From assembly GCA_017608385.1 (NCBI GenBank), contig JAFCFZ010000001.1:8734-72733 (forward strand): 64,000 bases of DNA. Direction: 5' to 3'. The stretch's first letter is position 1; each line of letters starts with the position of its first letter. Below are positions 1,059 to 64,000 of this stretch, in pieces. The notes beneath the pieces were generated by a model that was not told the origin of the DNA, made no database searches, and saw nothing but the letters and a program-made list of their open reading frames with translations. This stretch comes from Candidatus Parvarchaeota archaeon (GTDB lineage: Archaea > Nanobdellota > Nanobdellia > B33-G15). A program made the position numbers and the translations under genes.

Positions 1059-1431
1059 TTTGATTACTCACCCAATTTTTTCCTTTTGAAAGGATTCCTG
1101 ATATAGATTTAGCAACTATTTCTTTAGAAATGATATTTCCTCTAAAACTAATCAAAACTAAATCATTAGAAAGAGAAATATTGTATTTCTCCCCTAACAA
1201 ATATTCATCAATATAAAGAGTGGATGAAAATCCATCCCCTTCAAAAACAACTGTATTTATCCTTTCAACGGTTTTATCAAGGATTTGACTTGCTCTTAAT
1301 CCAATCACTGAATAACTATAATCTATTGTTTTTAGATATGAAGCAGTTGTTATCGCAATACTACCCAAAAATAGAACTGAAATAAGGATAATTATTTCCA
1401 TTCCTAATTGTGATTTAGTAGAGAGAGACAT
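1036..1431 (-). CDS. Type IV pilin-like protein (class III signal peptide)
   Basis: The N-terminus MSLSTKSQLGMEIIILISVLFLGSIAI has K-S-Q, then E at +5 and a hydrophobic segment. It overlaps both neighbouring genes. Confidence 0.5.
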   Translation of the reverse strand: MSLSTKSQLGMEIIILISVLFLGSIAITTASYLKTIDYSYSVIGLRASQILDKTVERINTVVFEGDGFSSTLYIDEYLLGEKYNISLSNDLVLISFRGNIISKEIVAKSISGILSKGKNWVSNQNGTIIIS

Positions 1432-1819
1432 TCACATATCCTCCTTCTGCCTTGATTTTTAGAAGATATTCTCCTTTACTTATTGGAACAGAAATAGTGA
1501 TATTAAAATTTGTATCAGAAAATATCTCAGAAACTCCTGCAGGAGTACTTACATAAACAGAAAGGGTACTTCCTGTTGAATTTATGTTCACTACATTTGA
1601 AGGAACATGAATTCTTAATGGAATTGTAGCTGGACTTCCTTGAGTATAAACAAATTCAGCAGCATCTCGGACTCCATCAACAAAATCTTGAGCATAATTA
1701 ATAGATATTTGATAGCCTAAGCCATTTGAATAATTAAATAAGTATACCCAAAGAGGAGTTAAAATCAATAAAAACCCAAAAACAATACTCATATACTCTA
1801 TAGAGACTTGTGATTTCAT
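1415..1819 (-). CDS. Type IV pilin-like protein of the euryarchaeal QxSxE[FY] type; first gene of the operon
   Basis: The N-terminus MKSQVSIEYMSIVFGFLLILTPL has the QVSIEY motif typical of EppA-processed pilins, followed by a hydrophobic helix. The remaining 134 aa are beta-rich and carry N-glycosylation sequons. Confidence 0.55.
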   Translation of the reverse strand: MKSQVSIEYMSIVFGFLLILTPLWVYLFNYSNGLGYQISINYAQDFVDGVRDAAEFVYTQGSPATIPLRIHVPSNVVNINSTGSTLSVYVSTPAGVSEIFSDTNFNITISVPISKGEYLLKIKAEGGYVNVSLY

Positions 1820-13285: not shown

Positions 13286-14017
13286 ATGTTAGAAAGATTC
13301 ACATTCAAAACGGAATACAAAAATACAAACCAATACAAAAATGCAGCAATCTTATCTATTATTATTTCAATTATTCTTATTCTTATGGCAGCAATTTTAT
13401 TTGATTTTTATTCATTGGCTTATACATTAGGAATTGGGGCAATGATTTACCAATTCTATGCTTTTTTCATAATATTTGAAATGTCTAAAAAGAAAATGAA
13501 AATAGGTAGTCATATTGTCACATTCTTGATGTTTTTTTTATTAATTACTGCAGTCATAATGGTCATAAAATTTGACAGAGCCAAGATAAGAGAGAACCCA
13601 ATGGGTCTTGCTTTAGGATTTTTAACAATAATTACTCCTGTGTTTTTTTGGGAAGAATTCTTTAAAAAAGCTGAGAAAATATTCAAGCCATTATTGATCC
13701 TTTTACTGTTGGTTCCTCTAATGATTCCAGGATATGCCCAAAACGAGACAAATGGAACATTACAGCAAGTAAGCAACGTCTTAGACTATGCGAAAATAGC
13801 TGTGGACTATGTCTCAGGAATTTTTGGTTTTTTTGGAGGGATACAAACAACAATACAAAACATGTTCGGTCTTGATCCAGGACAAGCCCAAATAATCAAC
13901 ATAGGGATTATCTTGGTGGTGCTCTATTTATTTTTGAGAACAATGAAATGGATTGTTAAGTGGATTATTCTAATATTGTTCGTATGGATTGCTCTTCAAG
14001 TAATAGGAATAATTTAA
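13286..14017 (+). CDS. Polytopic membrane protein, hypothetical
   Basis: It starts at the ATG just after the DUF655 stop and has about 7 hydrophobic helices. No family was recognised. Confidence 0.4.
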   Translation: MLERFTFKTEYKNTNQYKNAAILSIIISIILILMAAILFDFYSLAYTLGIGAMIYQFYAFFIIFEMSKKKMKIGSHIVTFLMFFLLITAVIMVIKFDRAKIRENPMGLALGFLTIITPVFFWEEFFKKAEKIFKPLLILLLLVPLMIPGYAQNETNGTLQQVSNVLDYAKIAVDYVSGIFGFFGGIQTTIQNMFGLDPGQAQIINIGIILVVLYLFLRTMKWIVKWIILILFVWIALQVIGII

Positions 14018-14469
14018 TAAGAGTTAGAAAATTGGATTGTGATTTTATCTGACTTATACAATTCTATATTTATTTTAGTACCGGAGATGTAATATCCAGA
14101 CAATTCAACACTCAAGGGAAGAGAAGCATCCAAACACTTTCTAATCCCAACCGATTCAAGATTCACACAAAACTTTCTCCCAATAATTGAAAGATAATAA
14201 ATAGACTCAATTAGTTTATCTGGAAAATCGATTTTATATGTTAAATTAACTGAATTTGTATCTTTTGTTAAGGAATATATTTTCAAAAAGGAAGAATCAA
14301 CATAATTCAAAAAATTGTCCATGCCTTCTTCATAAACATAATCTTCTACATTTGGTAAGAATAAACTAGATAAAAATACTGCAAGGCCAATAACTAATGT
14401 AACACCAATAGTAAAGGTGATAATTTCACTAATAACCACTGCTTGGGCTTTCATATTACTTAGCCACAC
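14014..14469 (-). CDS. Possible pilin-like or secreted protein with a class III-like signal
   Basis: The N-terminus MWLSNMKAQAVVISEIITFTIGVTLVIGLAVFL has K-A-Q followed by a hydrophobic helix with an E. Confidence 0.35.
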   Translation of the reverse strand: MWLSNMKAQAVVISEIITFTIGVTLVIGLAVFLSSLFLPNVEDYVYEEGMDNFLNYVDSSFLKIYSLTKDTNSVNLTYKIDFPDKLIESIYYLSIIGRKFCVNLESVGIRKCLDASLPLSVELSGYYISGTKINIELYKSDKITIQFSNSY

Positions 14470-43485: not shown

Positions 43486-44604
43486 ATGAAAAAATCTCAA
43501 AATGCTGTGCCTGCTATTCTTTTCTTATTTTTGGGGCTTTTTTTGTTTTATGTACTAATGATGACACCTAGTCAAATGGAAGGGCTTTTTGGAGATGACT
43601 CACCAACAACAAATGTTTCACAGGGAATTTCAGAAGAAGTTGGTTTGGTAGGAGGTTCAAGCGGAACAGAAATAGTTGGAACAAGGGATTTTCCAGAGTT
43701 TTTTGTTGCTTATCCTAGTGAGAGGACATTGAGGCACCACGAGAATCAGTTTACTTTATCCTCTAATATTTTTTATTCTGATTCTAAATATTATGATTTT
43801 GAAAAAGGGGACAATACTAAAGGAGTGCAAATATACATGAATATTGCTTCTTTGACAGGAGGCCCTTCATTAAGAGTTCTTCTTAATGGAGTTGAAGTGG
43901 GAACTGTACCCTCTGCAGGAGAAACAACATTAGAAATTGATGAGGCTCAACTTAACTCAAGTAATAGAATTTTGGTAGTTTGTCAATTCCAAGGATGGGC
44001 TTTCTGGGCAGGAGAAACATGTAATTTTGATGAAATGAATATTTATATTGAGAATTTTGAAACCAAAGACAGTAATTTCTCAAGAAATTTTGACATAACT
44101 GAAAAAGAAGCATATGCTTCATTTGTTGTTCTAAATTTCAGCATTGGTGAAAAAACAAATGATGGTGACATTATTGTTAGCATAAATGATGTAGAAGTTT
44201 ACAAAGACAACCCTGTTGAAGGAATATACACTGTAGAGGAAGAAATGAATATCCTTCAAACAAATAAACTACTTGTTCAAGTAGAAACAGGTGGGATTTA
44301 TGAAGTCAAAAAAATGACTTTAGGATTTAAAATGGATCAAATAGCTGAAAAAATGCCAATTATTGATTTTTACCTTGATGATACAAATTCTGACATAATT
44401 GTTAGAGTTTATGTTGAGGAATTAGTTCTTGGACCTAATATTCTAAATCTAAGAATGGAATCAGCAGGAGTGACATATCAAATAAGTCCATTAAGGGCAG
44501 GTTGGAATGAGATCACAATAAATAAAGAACATCTTAGATTAAGAAATTCAATGAGACTATCTTCAAATGGTTTAGTTGATATTGACCACATTGAGATAGA
44601 ATAA
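43486..44604 (+). CDS. Large secreted protein with a class III-like (K-S-Q) N-terminus
   Basis: MKKSQNAVPAILFLFLGLFLFYVLMM is followed by a 340-aa beta-rich domain. I did not recognise a family. Confidence 0.45.
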   Translation: MKKSQNAVPAILFLFLGLFLFYVLMMTPSQMEGLFGDDSPTTNVSQGISEEVGLVGGSSGTEIVGTRDFPEFFVAYPSERTLRHHENQFTLSSNIFYSDSKYYDFEKGDNTKGVQIYMNIASLTGGPSLRVLLNGVEVGTVPSAGETTLEIDEAQLNSSNRILVVCQFQGWAFWAGETCNFDEMNIYIENFETKDSNFSRNFDITEKEAYASFVVLNFSIGEKTNDGDIIVSINDVEVYKDNPVEGIYTVEEEMNILQTNKLLVQVETGGIYEVKKMTLGFKMDQIAEKMPIIDFYLDDTNSDIIVRVYVEELVLGPNILNLRMESAGVTYQISPLRAGWNEITINKEHLRLRNSMRLSSNGLVDIDHIEIE

Positions 44605-44613
44605 GGTGCAAAA

Positions 44614-46233
44614 ATGCCTATTGAAGAAAAATGGTTTTTTGAGGAGGAGGAGGAAGAGGATTCTGATGGAGAGTCTTCTGACTCTGATGGAGAGTCTTCT
44701 GACTCTGATGGAGGTTCATCTAAAAAACAGGGGGGCTGGGCCTACATAATAATGAGTATTGTTTTTGGATTTGTTGGATTTCTTATTTTAGGATTATTGG
44801 GTGGTTTTCTTCTCTTTATATTTCCATTAATTATCTGGTACTTTGGACCAGGAAAGGGAGTCAATTTTGTTATTTTGATTCTTGCTGCTTTTTTGGGATT
44901 GTGGTTTGGTGGAATTTTAGCAGCATTTCTTCTTCCTCTCCCAATTGCAGCTTGGTTATTTAGTGGTTCTTTCTTTGGAGAAGAAGGCGAAGGTAAATTT
45001 TTAAGAGGAATGTTAAGTATTGCTGCATTTATTCCGTTTTTCCTCGTATTTTTGTGGCCAATGATAGGAAGTTTTTTTGGATCTCAAGTTGCAATGGTTG
45101 GAACAAGCTTTGATGATTTTATTGGTATGATAAGTTCTCAAAAAGATCTTTTGATGAATGCAGATTATCAAAGATATTTAGGAGTTCAACAAAGTGTTTA
45201 TGATACTTCTTCACAAACTTATTCAAGTCCTACTACTAGTTTTGAGATAAACAGTTTTACTATCTCTCCTGAAAGTGGATGTTTTGAATTAAACACAATG
45301 AACTTTTTTGGTGTTGTAAAAAACACGGGGACTTTGAATATTGAAGGTATGAAAACGGGATTTTATTTAGATCCCACTCAAATAGGAACTAATTGTGAAC
45401 AAACAATCACCCAAATGGGGCACAAATATAAATGTCTTCTTGGACAAGAATGTATTATGGGGAAATGTGGGCTTGTTTTAGGAGAATACTTCTTAAATGC
45501 TGTTGAACCAGATTGTACATCTCATCCAAATCATGAGAGATGGGGATGTTATTGTGTGGATGAAGATGAAGTTAATACTATGAATACATTATATCCAAAT
45601 GCAATTGGAACATTTACTAAAACGATTGAGATGATTGATCCAAGTGATCCTCTTGATGTTGTAGACGCTATAACATGTAGGTTATTTGCTTATGCTCAAG
45701 CAGAATATACTGTTAGATCAAGATTAGAAGTTTCAATGATAAACTCTGAGTATTACATACTTAAGGGATTAGTATTTTCATCTGTCCCAGCAGTTCAATC
45801 AATAGGTCCTGTTCAATTGAGAATGGGTGTTGGAACACAACCAATTATTAACAACGAAGATAAAAGAGTTTTAACTGTTGCTCTTGGTAATGAAGGAAAT
45901 GGAGAATTAATTGATCTCAATAGTGTCTCATTATATGTCCCTACAGAATTTTCATCAGCAGGATGTGAAGGAGGTCAATTTGTTAGAACAGTTTGTTCAA
46001 GCGCTCCATCTAATATAGATAATTGTGAGGAAATGAGAAGTGAGGGATATAATTTATTTGTATTAGCAGTTGAAGCAACTCCCTATTCCTCCTATTCATG
46101 CTCATTAACTATTAATGAAAATATAAAGAATCTAGGTGGTGAAAACCGAAGATCATTTGTATTTTTAGCAGATGCTTCATATAATTACATGGTCAAAGCT
46201 CCTGCATTCATAACAGGAAATAGGTGTGTTTAA
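44614..46233 (+). CDS. Polytopic membrane protein with an acidic SDGESSD repeat N-terminus and a Cys-containing extracellular C-domain
   Basis: The N-terminus reads EEEEEEDSDGESSDSDGESSDSDGGSS. It is followed by about 6 TM helices in roughly 180 aa, then a roughly 350-aa soluble domain with about 12 Cys. Confidence 0.5.
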   Translation: MPIEEKWFFEEEEEEDSDGESSDSDGESSDSDGGSSKKQGGWAYIIMSIVFGFVGFLILGLLGGFLLFIFPLIIWYFGPGKGVNFVILILAAFLGLWFGGILAAFLLPLPIAAWLFSGSFFGEEGEGKFLRGMLSIAAFIPFFLVFLWPMIGSFFGSQVAMVGTSFDDFIGMISSQKDLLMNADYQRYLGVQQSVYDTSSQTYSSPTTSFEINSFTISPESGCFELNTMNFFGVVKNTGTLNIEGMKTGFYLDPTQIGTNCEQTITQMGHKYKCLLGQECIMGKCGLVLGEYFLNAVEPDCTSHPNHERWGCYCVDEDEVNTMNTLYPNAIGTFTKTIEMIDPSDPLDVVDAITCRLFAYAQAEYTVRSRLEVSMINSEYYILKGLVFSSVPAVQSIGPVQLRMGVGTQPIINNEDKRVLTVALGNEGNGELIDLNSVSLYVPTEFSSAGCEGGQFVRTVCSSAPSNIDNCEEMRSEGYNLFVLAVEATPYSSYSCSLTINENIKNLGGENRRSFVFLADASYNYMVKAPAFITGNRCV

Positions 46234-47264
46234 TGGATTTGAAAAAAATAATACCAATATTGGCAGTGGTTTTGGTACTTGGATGTATACAAGCTCCAGC
46301 AGAAGAAACCAAATTAATGGAATCTGAAGGATTAGGAATTCTATTATTCGGACTTCCATCTAATCCAGAAAATCCTGTTATAGAAATTGAAAAAGTTCCC
46401 GCTAATTCAGATGCCTTTCTTAGTCTTATCTTAAGAAACAATGCAGAAGGAGACATAGCTAAAGATATCACAGTTAGTCTAGACAATGTTGAGCCGTTTG
46501 ATATTGTAGAATGTGGAGATCAACATTCTCCTGTTGCTCAAAGAACTGAAGCATGTTATGGAAGTATATATGATGACAGACTTGAAGATGACTATAGAAC
46601 ACACAGAATAAATGAGATGAGACCTGATGAAGAATTAGAATTTTTTTGGGTGTTAAAATCTCCATCTAAACTAATAACGGGGGGTTTGTATTATCAACAC
46701 CCTATTTATGTAAGTGTGAATTATCACTATCATACAAGTATCTATACTGGTGTTGCTGCAATGACCTTTCAAGAGTATTCTTCAAGAAAATCTGGAGGAG
46801 GAAGTTTAACAGGAACTAGTACTTCAAGTGCAGGAGAGGTAATTGTTTATTCCCAAACAAGTGAGCCTATCTTATATGTTCAAGGTTCTCCTGGTTCATT
46901 TGTATTGAAATTATTAATAACTAATAGAGGAAATGGGATCCCAAAACCGAATGAAAAAGTCAACTTAACTATTGAGTTTGATAAAAATCTTGTTGAATTA
47001 AATGGAGAAACAACAGTTGATGTTGCAAATCAAAATCAGTTAAGATGGTTTAATACAGAATATGGAGCAAACAAACAAGATAGAGAATCATTATTACTCC
47101 AACAAATAGAACCAATCAATTTGATATCAAATTCTTACACAATAAATGTTCCTTTCAAATTATTGGAAAGTAATGCTAATTACCAAATTTTACCTTTTTA
47201 TGTGAGAATCAGTTATGATTATTCTTTAGAAAGTCAGACAGCATTAGGGGTGATACCAACTTGA
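46224..47264 (+). CDS. Lipobox-like secreted protein
   Basis: The N-terminus MDLKKIIPILAVVLVLGCIQAPAEE contains the lipobox-like LVLGC. It is beta-rich with N-glycan sequons and overlaps the next gene. Confidence 0.5.
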   Translation: MCLMDLKKIIPILAVVLVLGCIQAPAEETKLMESEGLGILLFGLPSNPENPVIEIEKVPANSDAFLSLILRNNAEGDIAKDITVSLDNVEPFDIVECGDQHSPVAQRTEACYGSIYDDRLEDDYRTHRINEMRPDEELEFFWVLKSPSKLITGGLYYQHPIYVSVNYHYHTSIYTGVAAMTFQEYSSRKSGGGSLTGTSTSSAGEVIVYSQTSEPILYVQGSPGSFVLKLLITNRGNGIPKPNEKVNLTIEFDKNLVELNGETTVDVANQNQLRWFNTEYGANKQDRESLLLQQIEPINLISNSYTINVPFKLLESNANYQILPFYVRISYDYSLESQTALGVIPT

Positions 47265-48136
47265 AAAAATATATACCTCTCTTTCTAGTGTTGCTTGTTC
47301 TTGGATGTATTCAACAAGAACCTGAAACAAATGACAAAATAATAACTTTTAACGGTTTGACAATTGTTTCATTCTCTGCAGACATAACCAACTTATTACC
47401 AGGAGAAACAACAGATTTGGAACTTTATATCAGAAACATTGGTGACTTCACTGCAGATAATATTGAGACTAAATTAATTGGTTTAGGTGAAATGACTGCA
47501 TTAATGAGAGGTTCCCCTCTAACAGAATTAGAACAAGCAGATTATGATTCATTTTCATGGGAATTAACAGCACCAAATATAGCTGGATTTACAACAGAGG
47601 TACCAATGACCCCTCAAGCAACAGTATATTACAAATATTTTTCACAGGCTTGGTCTGATGTAAATATTGTTCCTTCTTCATATTCTGAACAAGTAACTTC
47701 AGCAAATGGTACTTCCTCAGCTCCAATTGACATCACTATAACCCCAAGTTCAACTCCTTTGAGAACATATAGAGACAATATGCCTCTAAACATCCATATA
47801 GATTTAACAAATAGAGGGGGGGGAGGAATAGCATATTTCGAAAGTGGAGTTGAAAATTCAGCAAAAGCCAATTTTGTTGAGAATATAGTTATTAGATTCC
47901 CATCAGAATGGATAATTACAGATGATTCTTGGACCCTTTTAGGGGATAATGGTGCTGAAAAAGTATATTCATTGGGATGTTCTAGTGAATCCATTGTCCC
48001 ATATATCTGTCCTTCTGGATATAGTAAAGTGGGGAGTTCTTGTATTCAGTGTCCTTCTGGATATAGTTATAATGTAGAAGTTGGATGTGTTTTAGAAGTT
48101 GCAATAATTGATCCGGAAGTTTTCAGGATACAATAA
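47261..48136 (+). CDS. Lipobox-like secreted protein with CPSGY repeats; its C-terminal part appears to continue in ORF 48108..48626 after a +1 frameshift
   Basis: The N-terminus MKKYIPLFLVLLVLGCIQQEPE carries the same LVLGCIQ as the upstream gene. The C-terminus starts the repeats ICPSGYSKVGSSCIQCPSGYSYNVEVGC. The ORF ends 11 codons after a T4 run (48120-48123) where the reading frame switches. Confidence 0.5.
   Translation: MKKYIPLFLVLLVLGCIQQEPETNDKIITFNGLTIVSFSADITNLLPGETTDLELYIRNIGDFTADNIETKLIGLGEMTALMRGSPLTELEQADYDSFSWELTAPNIAGFTTEVPMTPQATVYYKYFSQAWSDVNIVPSSYSEQVTSANGTSSAPIDITITPSSTPLRTYRDNMPLNIHIDLTNRGGGGIAYFESGVENSAKANFVENIVIRFPSEWIITDDSWTLLGDNGAEKVYSLGCSSESIVPYICPSGYSKVGSSCIQCPSGYSYNVEVGCVLEVAIIDPEVFRIQ
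48008..48121 (+). repeat. 114-bp perfect direct repeat, copy 1 (copy 2 at 48243..48356)
   Basis: The 114-bp sequence TGTCCTTCTGGATATAGTAAAGTGGGGAG...ATTGATCCGGAAGTT is identical at both sites. A diverged 121-bp copy of the same coding unit lies between the two. Confidence 0.85.
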
Positions 48137-48626
48137 GGTTGGGGTCTTTTGTATAACATGTCCATCTGGATATACCTACGACATGGAGATTGGTTGTATA
48201 AAAGGAGAGGATATACTCTCAACAGAATCTACAGACCCTATTTGTCCTTCTGGATATAGTAAAGTGGGGAGTTCTTGTATTCAGTGTCCTTCTGGATATA
48301 GTTATAATGTAGAAGTTGGATGTGTTTTAGAAGTTGCAATAATTGATCCGGAAGTTATAATTGATCCGGAAGTTGCTGATCCTCTTTGTCCAAATGGTTC
48401 TGTGGAAGAAGAAGGAAAATGTATTTCAACAGATTCAGAAAGTTGTACAATTGATGATTTGAATTATAAATTAAGATTAACTCAAGGTAATTCAAACTTA
48501 GTTATAGTTCCATTCAATATCAGTCAAGTAGACACACCAGTAACTGAAAGATTCTATGTGAATATGACTTATGGATATAAATTGAATTCAAATCCAATAA
48601 CAATAACAATAATTCCCTTAATCTAA
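48108..48626 (+). CDS. CPSGY-repeat protein fragment, probably the C-terminal continuation of 47261..48136
   Basis: It has no signal peptide of its own. It continues the repeat motif (GYNKVGVFCITCPSGYTYDMEIGC, ICPSGYSKVGSSCIQCPSGYSYNVEVGC, IIDPEVIIDPEV, CPNGSVEEEGKC). Confidence 0.45.
   Translation: MIRKFSGYNKVGVFCITCPSGYTYDMEIGCIKGEDILSTESTDPICPSGYSKVGSSCIQCPSGYSYNVEVGCVLEVAIIDPEVIIDPEVADPLCPNGSVEEEGKCISTDSESCTIDDLNYKLRLTQGNSNLVIVPFNISQVDTPVTERFYVNMTYGYKLNSNPITITIIPLI
48243..48356 (+). repeat. 114-bp perfect direct repeat, copy 2
   Basis: It is identical to 48008..48121. Confidence 0.85.
48339..48374 (+). repeat. 18-bp tandem duplication (ATAATTGATCCGGAAGTT x2) encoding IIDPEV-IIDPEV
   Basis: It is read directly from the sequence and abuts the end of repeat copy 2. 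Confidence 0.8.
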
Positions 48627-57595: not shown

Positions 57596-58267
57596 TTATG
57601 CTTGTCTTAAAGAAATTGAAATTCCTTTGTTAGATATCTTGTATGCAAACAAACCTTGCTTATGTTTTGTTCTTCTCATCTTAACCACTTGAAGGCTTCT
57701 GTCAAAATCTCCCCCCAATCCACCATAGTGTAATACAATAACAGAATCTGATAAAAACTCCTCTACTTGGAACCTTGAATATCCTTTCTCGGCAATAATC
57801 TCTGAAGTCATTATAGCTGTACATCCATTATTCTTCACTGTCTTTCCTAATTCATAAATATTTTTTCTTAATTCATAAATATCTTTTAGATAAAATCCAA
57901 TTCCAGAAATAGAGTCTATAACAATTCTCTTTATTTTGTTTCTTTTCAACAAAAGTGAGAACTCCTGCTTAAATTTATCATATTCAAAAGGAGAAAAATG
58001 AAGTAATTTTATTTTCCCGCTCTTTATGTGTTTTTCCAAGTCCCAACCATATGCGGAAGCATCTCTTATAAGATCCTCAGCTGTTTCTTCAAATGAAACA
58101 TAAAGACCATTTTCACCATCAAGAGCACCTTGTATTAAAAATTGTAGAGAAAATGTGGTTTTTCCAGTACCTGGTCCGCCAGAAAGAAGAATAACACTTC
58201 CTAATTCTAAACCGCCATTAGCTATTTTATCCAAACCAGGAATTCCAGATTTTATTCTTAACCCCAT
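57596..58267 (-). CDS. KaiC-like / RadB-like RecA-superfamily ATPase
   Basis: SGIPGLDKIANGGLELGSVILLSGGPGTGKTTFSLQF and an IVLH... segment are Walker A and B motifs of the KaiC-like family. Confidence 0.7.
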   Translation of the reverse strand: MGLRIKSGIPGLDKIANGGLELGSVILLSGGPGTGKTTFSLQFLIQGALDGENGLYVSFEETAEDLIRDASAYGWDLEKHIKSGKIKLLHFSPFEYDKFKQEFSLLLKRNKIKRIVIDSISGIGFYLKDIYELRKNIYELGKTVKNNGCTAIMTSEIIAEKGYSRFQVEEFLSDSVIVLHYGGLGGDFDRSLQVVKMRRTKHKQGLFAYKISNKGISISLRQA

Positions 58268-60147: not shown

Positions 60148-61767
60148 ATGAATGGAAATCAAAATAAAGCAACACAGCCAATAGTCCTACTTCCAGATAA
60201 TTATTCTAGATTAATTGGAAGAGATGCTCAAAGAACAAATATTATGGCTGCAAGAATTGTTGCTGAAACAGTTAGAACAACTTTAGGCCCTAAAGGAATG
60301 GATAAGATGCTTGTTGATTCTTTAGGAGATATTACAGTTACAAACGACGGTGTGACTATTTTAGAAGAAATGGAAATACAACACCCTGCAGCCAAAATGA
60401 TGGTTGAAATTGCTAAAACTCAAGAAGAAGAAGTTGGAGATGGAACTACTACTGCAGTAGTTATTGCTGGAGAATTACTCAAACAAGCAAATGAATTGCT
60501 TGATCAAGAGATTCATCCTACAATACTTGCAAAAGGATATAGACTAGCATCTGAAAAAGCAGAAGCAACTCTAAAAAAGATGGCAATAAAGGTTGATGAT
60601 AAAAAAAGAGAGTATATGTTAAAAGTTGCAAAAACAGCAATGACAGGAAAGAGTGCAGAAGTTGCAAGAGATAAATTAGCACAGCTCTTGGTTGATGCAA
60701 TTATCCAAATAAGTGATAAAAATGAAGTTGACCTAAACAATGTAAAAATTGAAAAAAGAACTGGTGGAGGAATTGATGATACAGTGCTAATACATGGTAT
60801 TGTCATTGACAAAGAAAGAGTTCATTCAGAAATGCCTTCAAAAATGGGAAATGCTAAAATACTCCTTTTGGATGCTGCTTTAGAAGTGAAGGAAACTGAA
60901 ACAGATGCTCAAATAAGAATAACTTCTCCAGACCAATTACAGGCTTTCTTAGAACAAGAAGAAAAAACACTAAATGACATGGTCAACAAGATTGAGAAAA
61001 GTGGTGCAAATGTTGTTTTCTGTCAAAAGGGAATAGATGATTTTGTTCAACATCTTTTAGCAAAAAAAGGAATTTATGCTGTAAGAAGAGTTAAAAAATC
61101 TGATATGGAAAAGTTGGCAAAAGCAACTGGTGGAAAAATTTCCAATAGTCTCAAATCAATTGATAATGTAGATATTGGGTTTGCAGGAAAAGTTTATGAG
61201 AAAAAATTTGGGGATAATGCCTTAACCTTTGTCACTGATTGTAAAAATCCAAAAGCAGTCACACTCCTAGTAAGGGGAAGTACTGAACATATTTTGGACG
61301 AAATTGAAAGAGCTATTGAGGATGCTCTTGGAGATTTAGGTTCAGTGATAAGAAATGGGACAATTGTTCCGGGTGGAGGAGCTCCTGAAATAGAAGTAGC
61401 TAAAGAATTAGAAGAGTTTTCTCAAGGAATGGCAGGAAGAGAACAATTAGCTGTAAAAGCTTTTGCAAAGTCAATGGAGATTATTCCAAGAACATTAGCT
61501 GAAAATGCAGGTCTTGATCCAATTGATATGATTGTTGAGTTGAAAGCAAGTCATGAATCTGGAAACAAACATCATGGTGTAGATGTTTTCAAAGGAACAA
61601 TTGTTGATATGTTGAAACAAGGAGTAATCGAACCGTTGGAAGTCAAGACTCAAGCAATTAAATCTGCAAGTGAAACAGCTATTCTTATACTAAGGATAGA
61701 TGATGTGATTGCTGCTTCTGGAAAAGAAATGCAAAATCCACAGATGCCTCCTATGGGAGATTACTAA
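60148..61767 (+). CDS. ths: Thermosome subunit (group II chaperonin)
   Basis: It has [30 protein letters not shown] and the group II lid region, over a length of 539 aa. Confidence 0.9.
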
Positions 61768-61801
61768 AACTTTTTAATATATCTTCTTCTTTATTTTTAG
61801 C

Positions 61802-62263
61802 ATGCCTAAAAAGAGTTCTAAGTCTAGTCCTTCTAATAATAGGTTAAAATATTTAGAGGACAAGATTGAACAAATCGAGAAGAAAACAAAAATTCTTGAT
61901 CAGTTTGAGTCTGCCATAACCAAATTAGCAGAACAAACAGATAAAATGGTTACAGTCAGTATAAATTTGCAAGCAAAAATGACTGAATTAATGATAAAAA
62001 CAACAGATCTTACTGAAAATGTCGTTGAGATGGTTGATATTCTAAAAGAAGCAGGTGACCTAGAAATGGATTCGGATAAGGAAGGAGGAAAAATTAGTAT
62101 TGAACCTATTGTTACTGAATTGAAAAAGATGCAAGAACAAAATGCTTTAACAATGAAAGAAATGAAGGGTCTTTTAGATTATATGAAAAAGATGTATACT
62201 AAACAATTAATTGGTGAGGCTGTAAGAAGTAACACAGCTGAAAGTGGCGGTTATGTTATCTAA
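61802..62263 (+). CDS. Coiled-coil hypothetical protein upstream of the pilin array
   Basis: This 153-aa protein is heptad-rich (LEDKIEQIEKKTKILDQFESAITKLAEQTDKM...). It overlaps the first pilin gene. Confidence 0.35.
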   Translation: MPKKSSKSSPSNNRLKYLEDKIEQIEKKTKILDQFESAITKLAEQTDKMVTVSINLQAKMTELMIKTTDLTENVVEMVDILKEAGDLEMDSDKEGGKISIEPIVTELKKMQEQNALTMKEMKGLLDYMKKMYTKQLIGEAVRSNTAESGGYVI

Positions 62264-62723
62264 AAAAGGGATTACACCTGTTATAGCAACGGTTTTATTG
62301 TTGATGATGACTGTTTCTGCAGCGGCAGGAGCATATTATTGGATAACAACTGTTCAATCAAGTCTTCAACAAGATGCTCAAGGTGCTATTGCTTCTTCAG
62401 GTATTAGTGGAGGATTTAGAATAAGTATCCTTTCTGGAGGTATTTCTTGTAATGGTACTTCAGATGAAGTAACAGTTTATGTAAAAAATGCAGGCACTCA
62501 AACCATCCCTGCTGGAACTTGGTATTCTTTCTTAAAAAATACCCAAAACATTGGAGTGGGAACCTGGTCTAGTTCTGAATCTGCTTTTAATTCTGGAAAC
62601 ACTTTAACAATAACCTTTGCACTTGATTCTGGGAATGGAATGTCTTCAGGAAACACATATACAATCCAAGTGAGTCCATCAAAGGGTACATCAGCAACAA
62701 CAAGCTGTAGAGCAACAACATAA
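62253..62723 (+). CDS. Type IV pilin-like protein of the KKGITPVIA class III signal family
   Basis: MLSKKGITPVIATVLLLMMTVSAAAGAYYW is an archaeal flagellin/pilin N-terminal-type signal (K-K-G then I-T-P-V-I-A). The 130-aa Ser/Thr/Gly-rich beta domain has two Cys. The start could instead be 62244. Confidence 0.6.
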   Translation: MLSKKGITPVIATVLLLMMTVSAAAGAYYWITTVQSSLQQDAQGAIASSGISGGFRISILSGGISCNGTSDEVTVYVKNAGTQTIPAGTWYSFLKNTQNIGVGTWSSSESAFNSGNTLTITFALDSGNGMSSGNTYTIQVSPSKGTSATTSCRATT

Positions 62724-62759
62724 AAAATCAATTAAATCTATGTATCATAATAACTATTA

Positions 62760-63224
62760 ATGAATAAAAAAGGAATCACTCCTGTGATTTCTATTGTTTT
62801 AATGATTATGATCACAGTTAGTGCTGCTTCTGCTGGTTATTTTTGGATGGGATCTATTCAATCTAATCTCCAAGTAAGTGCTCAAAATGCTATATCTTCC
62901 ACAGGTTTAGGGGGGAATTATCAAATTTCTGCTTTAGCGGGAGGAGTTATTTGTGAATCAGGAGTTGATGGAACAATTCAAGTTTATGTCTCAAATACGG
63001 GATCAAATAATATTGAAATGGGGGATTGGTATATCTTTGTAAAGGATTCAATAAATGCAAATGTTGGAACTTGGACAAATACTACTTTTCTAAATTCGGG
63101 GGAAACAGTTCCCATATTGTTTGAATTTTTGTCTGGCAGTTCTTTGTCAAATAAAACTCAATATGTTATTCAAATTAACTCACCAAAAGGGGGTTCTGCA
63201 ACAACATCTTGTTTACCTAAGTGA
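62760..63224 (+). CDS. Type IV pilin-like protein, paralog 2
   Basis: MNKKGITPVISIVLMIMITVSAASAGYFW has the same architecture and the same two conserved Cys positions (...ICESG..., ...TTSC...). Confidence 0.6.
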   Translation: MNKKGITPVISIVLMIMITVSAASAGYFWMGSIQSNLQVSAQNAISSTGLGGNYQISALAGGVICESGVDGTIQVYVSNTGSNNIEMGDWYIFVKDSINANVGTWTNTTFLNSGETVPILFEFLSGSSLSNKTQYVIQINSPKGGSATTSCLPK

Positions 63225-63260
63225 TAAACTATTTAAACATTCTTGATGTATGTGTTTAAC

Positions 63261-63755
63261 ATGAATAAGAAAGGTATTACACCTGTTATAGCAATTGTTT
63301 TATTGCTCATGATGACAGTTAGTTCTGCAGCAGCTGCTTATTATTGGATGACCACAATTCAGTCCAACCTACAGCAGCAAGCGCAGGGAGCAATATCATC
63401 TGCTGGTTTAGGTGGAGGTTACGGTATCAGTGTTTTATCTGGAAGTACATCTTGTTTGTATAATGGCACAACAGGTACACAAGTAGACGCTTACCTTAGT
63501 GTTACTGGATCCAACCAAATGCCTATTGGAGATTGGTATGCTTTTGTCGTAGACTCTACTGGTGCGAGTGTTGGTACTTGGTCCAAAACAAGTCAAGCAG
63601 CACTATCATCTGGTGTTGCAACAAAAGTTGAATTTACAAATGTATCAATAGTGACTGCAAGTTACAACCTAACTAAAGCAACAGTATATACTGTAACAGT
63701 TAACTCACCAAAGGGTACATCTGCAACAACAAGCTGCACAGGTAGTACGATATAA
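63261..63755 (+). CDS. Type IV pilin-like protein, paralog 3
   Basis: The start is taken at MNKKGITPVIAIVLLLMMTVSSAAAAYYW. It has the same domain and Cys pair. Confidence 0.6.
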   Translation: MNKKGITPVIAIVLLLMMTVSSAAAAYYWMTTIQSNLQQQAQGAISSAGLGGGYGISVLSGSTSCLYNGTTGTQVDAYLSVTGSNQMPIGDWYAFVVDSTGASVGTWSKTSQAALSSGVATKVEFTNVSIVTASYNLTKATVYTVTVNSPKGTSATTSCTGSTI

Positions 63756-63785
63756 ATAAACCTTTATTTTTTGATTTGATTTAAT

Positions 63786-64000
63786 ATGAAAAAAGGACAA
63801 TCCACAGTAGTTAGTAGCGTACTTATTTCTGGTATTATTATCTCTATAATTAGTCTCACTTATGTGTGGGGCAGACCTTTAATTCAGAAGACAGCAGATA
63901 AATCAAACATTGATTCTGCTAAAAATGACCTAATCAATTTAAAGGATATGATTATTGAGGCAGCAAGTACTGGAAGTACTGGGAGATATGAATTAAATTT
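63786..64000 (+). CDS. Pilin-like protein with a KKGQ-type class III signal, partial because the 3' end runs off the window
   Basis: MKKGQSTVVSSVLISGIIISIISLTYVWG has K-K-G then Q followed by a hydrophobic helix (a FlaK/EppA-type site). The ORF is open to the window end. Confidence 0.45.
   Translation, partial: MKKGQSTVVSSVLISGIIISIISLTYVWGRPLIQKTADKSNIDSAKNDLINLKDMIIEAASTGSTGRYELN

Follow-up and report, generated by a model that had tools for sequence, protein, structure and literature searches.

A tandem array of pilin genes in a DPANN archaeon probably encodes the major subunits of a type IV pilus distinct from the archaellum

The last 2.2 kb of a 64,000-nt stretch of contig JAFCFZ010000001.1 from a Candidatus Parvarchaeota archaeon (we refer to the whole stretch as the window) contain three tandem paralogous genes, the products of which are most probably the major subunits from which a DPANN archaeon builds a type IV pilus (type IV filament, TFF) other than an archaellum. 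All genes of this locus lie on the + strand. They are preceded by the gene of a coiled-coil protein and followed by that of a minor pilin, and the window ends inside the pilus operon. DPANN archaea are ultra-small obligate symbionts, the means by which they find and hold their hosts are poorly understood, and type IV filaments are leading candidates for this role. The kind of system described here is already known from the 'archaellin/FlaI/FlaJ-like' pili of DPANN archaea (Hamm 2019) and from the TFF classifications of 2016 and 2026.

Three tandem proteins with an archaeal pilin-type signal

The three open reading frames (ORFs), which start at positions 62253, 62760 and 63261, encode proteins that begin with MLSKKGITPVIA (paralog 1), MNKKGITPVIS (paralog 2) and MNKKGITPVIA (paralog 3). 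Alternative starts are found at 62244 (GTG) for paralog 1 and at 63243 and 63246 for paralog 3. When aligned, the paralogs are 47-52% identical overall (paralog 1 shares 47% with paralog 2 and 52% with paralog 3); the identity is 58-81% over residues 3-45 and 41-49% over the remainder, the beta domain being the less conserved part. Each protein has exactly two cysteines, at equivalent positions (66/152, 65/151 and 65/159), and terminates in SATTSC, while serine, threonine, glycine and asparagine make up 44-54% of the residues after residue 50. An earlier note on this DNA had described these features, namely the tandem ORFs behind a coiled-coil gene, their common KKGITPVI[AS] start, the cysteine pair, the shared C-terminus and an S/T/G-rich domain, and all of them are present as it described; its figure of 130 aa for that domain is approximately right, the beta domain comprising about 105-115 aa after an N-terminal segment of 48 aa.

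The precursors share a layout in which a short basic leader ending in glycine is followed by a hydrophobic stretch of about 25 residues, a polar helical extension and an immunoglobulin (Ig)-like beta domain. In the three paralogs and in the fourth gene, 22 uncharged residues come directly after the KG of the signal. The motif K-G-I-T-P-V is invariant in 17 family members, most of which also keep both cysteine columns. The TIGR02537 model of the archaellin/type IV pilin N-terminal domain, with a cut-off of 20 bits, is passed by all three paralogs (41.4, 31.5 and 37.1 bits for paralogs 1, 2 and 3), and the profile of the family itself gives them 197-220 bits (200 for paralog 2, 197 for paralog 3), far beyond chance. 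An AlphaFold model built on a 17-homologue alignment consists of a helix (residues 8-48) followed by an eight-stranded beta domain with a predicted local distance difference test score (pLDDT) >90. The closest PDB structures are archaeal pilins, archaellins and FlaF/FlaG, and the nearest is the Pyrobaculum calidifontis pilin 8fk7. By sequence only, the family profile aligns with the entire length of 8fk7 (E 2.5e-10) and also matches the soluble domain of FlaG (E ~1e-4); Natrinema PilA2 (8gi2) is matched at E 0.35 only. Because TIGR02537 is passed, the predicted fold is the expected one and there is homology to a solved pilin, the evidence supports the assignment of the paralogs to the archaeal class III signal (type IV pilin/archaellin-type) proteins, which is also the N-terminal type that the earlier note had recognized.

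With 575 representative clusters at E<=1e-10 the family is a large one, and its members are almost all 150-170 aa long. No public names are on record for the exact proteins of the window.

An ATPase and, in relatives, a split platform follow the pilin genes

The assembly genes to be expected past position 64000, to which the earlier note had drawn attention, were found in other contigs. A look-up with P0001 and paralog 2 returned one near-identical contig of 7.7 kb and one of 2.4 kb. The former (L001), a Joint Genome Institute (JGI) contig, carries the same locus, in which a complete 308-aa minor pilin follows the pilins and is itself followed by a secretion ATPase of the T2SSE family; L001 ends inside the latter gene. 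One residue in the beta domain of paralog 3 differs between L001 (4882-5394) and the window (63243-63755), MPVGDWY versus MPIGDWY, which is strain-level variation within the pilin. The earlier note had taken the gene at 63786 for a different pilin-like protein, and indeed, although its match to DUF7289 in the window is weak (17.3 bits), the orthologue in L036 passes that family (29.4 bits against a cut-off of 27). A metagenome scan with the 308-aa minor pilin found nothing, and a query with the ATPase over genome contigs returned bacterial Tad-like ATPases and, apart from these, only a Woesearchaeota contig of 3.2 kb (71% identity).

Among relatives that bear a name, metagenome-assembled genomes of Woesearchaeota and 'Nanoarchaeota' are the nearest. 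Two long contigs, L035 and L036, whose pilins are 35-41% identical to those of the window, contain the whole operon behind the same upstream genes (Nop56, fibrillarin and thermosome). Its order is coiled-coil protein, one or two pilins, DUF7289 minor pilin, ATPase, two T2SSF genes, accessory protein 1, accessory protein 2 and a LamG protein; the part from the ATPase to the LamG protein is found in this order in L061 as well. The ATPase of L035 and L036 is a T2SSE protein of 624-626 aa that matches PF00437 and PilB3_C (PF23989; 40.5 bits, cut-off 27) and has an N-terminal extension of about 165-180 residues before the region aligned to FlaI and to the Archaeoglobus fulgidus ATPase afGspE. The two T2SSF genes align to the N- and C-terminal halves of ArlJ/UpsF, that is, the platform is split in two. 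Accessory protein 1 is DUF7287-like, accessory protein 2 has 344-363 aa, and the large protein (930-1120 aa) has a ConA/LamG lectin domain (Laminin_G_3, 68.8 bits) as the only domain detected.

To these we added component profile scans over 79 further metagenomic loci fetched with the pilin alignment; the counts given here and below for the minor pilin, the ATPase, the coiled-coil gene and the thermosome refer to loci with enough flank to be judged. The minor pilin, 220-310 aa across the relatives, comes directly after the pilins in 35 of 60 loci, the ATPase follows in 19 of 39, and each of the nine loci that reach far enough (L035, L036, L061, L065, L088, L099, L104, L109 and L115) encodes the two halves of the platform in separate genes. 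There is one pilin gene in 20 loci, two in 15, three in 7 and four in 1. Thus the arrangement is widely conserved, with the same gene order across dozens of metagenomic loci. Several of these loci (L088, L099, L109 and L115) encode very acidic proteins, which suggests that they belong to halophilic DPANN archaea.

The pilin N-terminus and beta domain also occur fused into proteins of 557-1717 aa (P0057, P0094, P0096, P0105 and P0157). One large fusion protein has seven copies of the beta domain, and ORFs of about 570 aa come after small pilins in L055-L066. Such large fusions may be pilin-anchored adhesins.

Two cleavage-site types and the question of a fibre

The earlier note had concluded from the difference between the KKG/ITPV signals and the signals with glutamine at +1 (Q+1) elsewhere in the window that the organism has two pilin systems and may need two peptidase specificities. 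This conclusion is not supported, as Q+1 signals occur within the same operon. The minor pilins carry them (KGQ/S, RSQ/S and KSQ/T in relatives, KG/QS in the fourth gene of the window), as do accessory protein 1 (SRGQ/VD, SKAQ/VD) and the lectin protein (KGQ/FF, KSQ/FF); accessory protein 2 has KG/F...E. Because these Q+1 minor, accessory and lectin proteins are encoded beside the KKG/ITPV pilins, both signal types, with isoleucine or glutamine at +1, belong to one machine.

The window has other Q+1 ORFs at 1-1819, 14014-14469 and 43486-44604, which are real and begin like pilins. None of them matches a curated family or, at E<=1, the small hidden Markov models of the operon's accessory proteins, and neither an ATPase nor a platform gene adjoins them. 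They may be further substrates of the same machinery.

Such proteins bear on an alternative that we consider improbable, in which the type IV machinery makes no long fibre but a short pseudopilus or bindosome-like assembly for secretion or display of class III proteins, for example the Q+1 proteins of the window. Many more class III-like proteins are encoded away from any ATPase, archaeal TFF machineries that display binding proteins have been documented (bioRxiv 10.64898/2026.04.22.720090), and the filament of this organism is a prediction from genes. The paralogs, however, are small subunits whose single Ig-like domain is not accompanied by a ligand-binding module, the homologue closest to them, 8fk7, builds a real, long pilus, and they come in one to four tandem gene copies, a multiplication that is typical of major filament subunits (PMC4858521).

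The operon resembles a pilus rather than an archaellum

Another alternative is a reduced archaellum, in which the paralogs are archaellins and the ATPase and the platform rotate the filament for swimming. Free cells of Nanobdella aerobiophila, likewise a DPANN archaeon, have been reported to swim (PMC11104419), archaellins are among the structural matches of the paralogs, and paralog 1 passes the Arch_flagellin family PF01917 (31.5 bits against a cut-off of 29.5). That family is nevertheless passed by one paralog of three, and marginally (paralogs 2 and 3 give no match at E<=1), and with about 150 aa the subunits do not reach the length of most archaellins among the PDB matches. The N-terminal segment is long (47-48 aa) and 50-65% nonpolar by our own count, in which the residue classes may differ from those of PMC10334743, and it overlaps the archaellin range given there.

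The assembly proteins also speak against an archaellum. Although the best NCBIfam model of the ATPase is FlaI (230 bits for the L001 fragment, 429 bits for the full-length L036 protein), the full-length score is below the ArlI cut-off of 550, the protein is closer to the non-archaellum ATPase afGspE (2oap, 431 bits) than to Sulfolobus acidocaldarius FlaI (4ii7, 300 bits), and it has the long N-terminal extension and PilB3_C domain described above. The halves of the split platform score 91 and 55 bits against ArlJ cut-offs of 400-570. Furthermore, NCBIfam and Pfam gave no match of any operon protein to ArlF, ArlG, ArlH, ArlX or ArlCDE; for the stator families this negative covers, in L036, the coiled-coil protein, the minor pilin, both accessory proteins and the large protein, and as these families are divergent, weak homologues could be missed.

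A KaiC-family ATPase encoded upstream of the locus was considered as an analogue of ArlH by comparison with the P. calidifontis locus. This idea is weakened by its ArlH score of 47 against a cut-off of 215 (Pfam KaiC gives 212 bits) and by its linkage to the pilus genes in only 4 of 17 loci. Because it is a neighbour only in the closest relatives, the KaiC-like gene is probably unrelated to the pilus.

Considering (i) the ATPase, (ii) the split platform and (iii) the missing Arl proteins, we therefore read the operon as one for a non-archaellum type IV pilus and regard an archaellum as quite improbable. For the homologues in nanohaloarchaea, Hamm et al. had come to this conclusion as well (PMC6642349).

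That one or two of the paralogs are pilin-derived, ArlF/ArlG-like stator or anchoring proteins and not filament subunits, as weak NCBIfam ArlG matches (E 5e-4 for paralog 1, E 0.1 for paralog 2) and the FlaG match of the family profile might suggest, is so improbable as to carry little weight, for the ArlG scores are far below the cut-off (20 against 110), all three paralogs have the same cleavage motif, an N-terminal segment of constant length and the cysteine pair at 47-52% identity, and the pilin copy number varies from one to four between relatives, so that no fixed division of labour is conserved among the paralogs.

Several observations weigh against the assignment of the paralogs to a type IV pilus. 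Pilin_N (PF07790/DUF1628), which the earlier note had put forward for comparison, is below its cut-off in all three (E 0.46, 0.004 and 0.12). The confidence of the AlphaFold2 (AF2) model drops below 50 at residues 27-50, the polar part of the helix. No A24 prepilin peptidase of the PF01478 type is present among the scanned window ORFs, namely six with at least four transmembrane (TM) segments and ten more, the candidates being an M48 peptidase, SecD/F, PAP2, SPFH, SRP54, FtsY and similar proteins; nor was a second T2SSE ATPase or a platform gene found among them. Because L001 ends inside the ATPase gene, the platform, the accessory genes and the lectin protein are known only from relatives with a pilin identity of 35-41%. 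Finally, filament formation, glycosylation, the disulphide, adhesion and the role of the coiled-coil protein are all inferred.

The coiled-coil gene and the thermosome

The stop of the coiled-coil gene overlaps the start of paralog 1 by 11 nt. Homologues of its product share 38-72% identity, and in 21 of 53 loci the gene immediately precedes those of the pilins, in many cases with an overlap at the pilin start. The protein matches nothing in Pfam, NCBIfam or the PDB, and its sequence has no visible TM segment or signal peptide. Its AF2 model consists of two long helices (10-90 and 101-146; predicted template modelling score, pTM, 0.30). The adjacent thermosome gave rise to the idea of a prefoldin-like chaperone, which we rejected: the protein has no match to the Pfam Prefoldin family, the two helices are of unequal length with no beta-hairpin, and Foldseek returned nothing at E<4.

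The locus lies directly after the thermosome gene, in an AT-rich tract (30-34% GC) of housekeeping genes. In 27 of 38 loci a thermosome gene lies no more than 2.5 kb upstream of the pilins, and by our own count from the per-locus table this is so in 16 of the 18 loci with a pilin profile score of at least 100. This thermosome-pilus linkage is a deep conserved synteny, for which we have no explanation. It is kept on the same strand across pilins that are about 30% identical, including those of acidic, halophile-like contigs, and is seen in L035, L036, L040, L041, L043, L053, L061, L062, L065, L088, L099, L103, L118 and others. In L055-L057, L064-L066 and L068 an extra pilin gene is found upstream of the thermosome, and 1.2-1.9 kb with no coiled-coil profile match separate the thermosome from the pilin array.

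Upstream of the coiled-coil gene, a TATA-box-like element, TTTTTAATATA, is a possible candidate for the operon promoter. The intergenic tract after paralog 3 is T-rich, with six T at 63767-63772, and might be a putative archaeal terminator. A scan for sigma-70 promoters and intrinsic terminators was disregarded as not applicable to archaea.

Other features of the window

The positions of the locus and of the other features mentioned are collected in Table 1. The four tandem ORFs in 1-1819 have Q at the putative +1 position and often E at +5 (MKSQVSIEY, STKSQLGMEI, SRKAQIFTFEV and MEMKSQVAMID). The surface-protein cluster comprises a 372-aa protein with a KKSQ/NAVPAILF signal, a 539-aa membrane protein that contains an acidic SDSDGESS repeat and two proteins whose N-termini (LVLGCIQ) are lipobox-like; a Cys-rich segment of about 40 aa, CPSGYSKVGSSCIQCPSGYSYNVEVGCVLEVAIIDPEV, is present in both 47261-48136 and 48108-48626. 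ARAGORN detected no tRNA gene in the entire 64-kb window.

Table 1 Features of the window and the grounds for their assignment
Feature	Position	Strand	Remarks
Four tandem small Q+1 ORFs	ending 558; 549-1058; 1036-1431; 1415-1819	-	Within 1-1819
Cys-rich secreted protein, 480 aa	1893-3335	+	After the tandem ORFs of 1-1819
Five-TM protein, 256 aa	13247-14017	+	No assigned family; adjoins 14014-14469; not an A24 peptidase by Pfam
Pilin-like ORF, 151 aa	14014-14469	-	NMKAQ/AVVISEI; weak DUF7266 match, E 0.0015
Surface-protein gene cluster	43486-48626	+	Sequence features
KaiC-family ATPase	57596-58267	-	Pfam KaiC; divergent from Nop56-fibrillarin
Thermosome (group II chaperonin)	60148-61767	+	PF00118 on the identical gene in L001; context, no functional claim
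TATA-box-like element	61771-61781	+	About 26 nt upstream of the coiled-coil ATG; read from sequence
Coiled-coil protein, 153 aa	61802-62263	+	First gene of the pilus operon; ORF and homologues
Pilin paralog 1, 156 aa	62253-62723	+	MLSKKG/ITPVIA signal; Cys66, Cys152; one N-x-S/T sequon
Pilin paralog 2, 154 aa	62760-63224	+	MNKKG/ITPVIS signal; Cys65, Cys151; two sequons
Pilin paralog 3, 164 aa	63261-63755	+	MNKKG/ITPVIA signal; Cys65, Cys159; three sequons
Minor pilin, first 71 codons	63786-64000	+	MKKG/QSTVVSSVLISGIII signal, Q at +1; runs past the window end

Discussion

Combining these observations with what is established for type IV filaments, we propose the following model for the pilus. 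The precursors would insert into the membrane, where a PibD/ArlK-type A24 aspartic peptidase, encoded elsewhere, would cleave them after KKG. The hexameric ATPase, working on the two-part platform, would then pull mature pilins out of the membrane and stack them into a fibre, the N-terminal helices forming its core and the glycosylated, probably disulphide-stabilized beta domains its surface. The Q+1 minor and accessory pilins might prime assembly or cap the fibre and might present the lectin protein as an adhesin, whereas the three paralogs could either co-polymerize or serve as alternative surfaces. The coiled-coil protein is assumed to be a partner in the cytoplasm, where it could regulate the ATPase or act as its scaffold, or else serve as a factor specific to the pilins; no other part of the model is as weak. 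The pilus likely serves attachment to host cells or surfaces. A link between LamG proteins and loci of type IV pili has been described for Mia14, a DPANN archaeon (PMC5498576).

The locus is a clean and well-preserved example of a pilus operon that is apparently common to Woesearchaeota-like, 'Nanoarchaeota' and halophilic DPANN lineages. From it the major subunits can be told, together with the minor pilin, the accessory pilins and a candidate adhesin of lectin type. The presence of two cleavage-site types in one machine matters when 'pilus systems' are counted from signal motifs. The resemblance of the subunits to the P. calidifontis pilin and to FlaF/FlaG bears on the debate about the origin of the archaellum from pili, as a lead and not as a demonstration.

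This lead can be put more specifically. According to Kreutzberger et al. (2023), archaellins differ from pilins in that their core helix is longer and is extended C-terminally by a polar part, and the P. calidifontis pilin was treated as an intermediate; the nonpolar share of the core segment is 57-71% in archaellins and 80-90% in ordinary pilins (PMC10334743). In each of the 17 members of the DPANN family that were examined, 47-48 residues separate the cleavage site from the first strand, compared to 43 in 8fk7. This partly polar segment, the FlaI-like ATPase and the relationship of the subunits to 8fk7 and FlaF/FlaG raise the speculative idea, which we hold to be unlikely on present evidence, that the family is a second and far more widespread group of 'flagellar-like' pili, a counterpart of those known to date from Thermoproteales only, built by a FlaI-like ATPase with neither stator nor ArlH. 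If this were true, filaments intermediate between pilus and archaellum would be ancient and widespread, and they could either trace the path along which the archaellum originated or provide ultra-small symbionts with a minimal apparatus for motility or retraction; the thermosome linkage and the dedicated coiled-coil protein would in that case belong to a module of assembly or regulation not described before.

Among characterized filaments, the 'flagellar-like' type IV pilus of P. calidifontis (8fk7; Kreutzberger et al. 2023, PMC10334743) is close in several respects. Both subunits have about 140-160 aa and one Ig-like domain, an N-terminal helix with a polar C-terminal extension and an intramolecular cysteine pair, and neither locus contains FlaF/FlaG. 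The identity, however, is only about 20%, the cysteine pair occupies other positions, and the N-terminal segment is 5 residues longer in the DPANN family. Furthermore, the KaiC-family gene is not a stable neighbour here (4/17), the platform is split, and the organism belongs to the DPANN archaea and not to the Thermoproteales.

Candidatus Nanohaloarchaeum antarcticus has a subunit annotated as archaellin and FlaI- and FlaJ-like genes but no other archaellum genes (PMC6642349), which is the situation found here. It expresses 'archaellin, FlaI, FlaJ', and these were read as a host-interaction pilus that is also present in Woesearchaeota (PMC6642349). The acidic contigs L088, L099, L109 and L115 have the same operon order as the family of the window. 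Compared by description, the 'archaellum' proteins of Nha. antarcticus contain Ig/PKD adhesion domains (PMC6642349), whereas the paralogs described here are single-domain proteins.

Within the TFF classifications, System 2 with ATPase clade 2 (Haloferax volcanii PilA1-6 and PilB3-PilC3; PMC4858521) shares with our operon the ATPase with a long N-terminal extension and PilB3_C, tandem major pilins, a DUF7289-type minor pilin beside the ATPase, DUF7287-like proteins and a large adhesin-like protein. It differs in that its platform is one gene and not two, and here the pilins are below the PF07790 cut-off and a coiled-coil gene precedes them. Makarova et al. (2016) placed nanoarchaeal ATPases in clades 2 and 4F, in one case with no identifiable cognate pilins (PMC4858521). 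The archaellum itself is similar in the homologous fold and N-terminus of its subunit, in FlaI as the best ATPase model and in the long, partly polar N-terminal helix, but the archaellum-specific accessory proteins were not found, neither the ATPase nor the platform reaches the equivalog cut-offs, and two genes encode the platform.

A split platform characterizes System 1 (Epd pilus) and is also found in subsystem 4A of some DPANN/Nanoarchaeota, in which accessory genes and an adhesin lie downstream (Sivabalasarma and Albers 2026; bioRxiv 10.64898/2026.04.22.720090). The Epd major pilin has no globular domain and carries Q at +1; because the subunits described here have a beta domain and isoleucine at +1, an Epd-type major pilin does not fit. 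The DPANN variant of subsystem 4A, with its two platform genes, ATPase, one or more pilins, downstream accessory genes and adhesin, resembles the operon as seen in the relatives, with the difference that the 4A adhesin is described as PilY-like and only a LamG/ConA lectin domain is detected here. Judged from its genes, the operon thus appears to combine a 4A-like layout with a System-2-like ATPase that has the N-terminal extension and PilB3_C.

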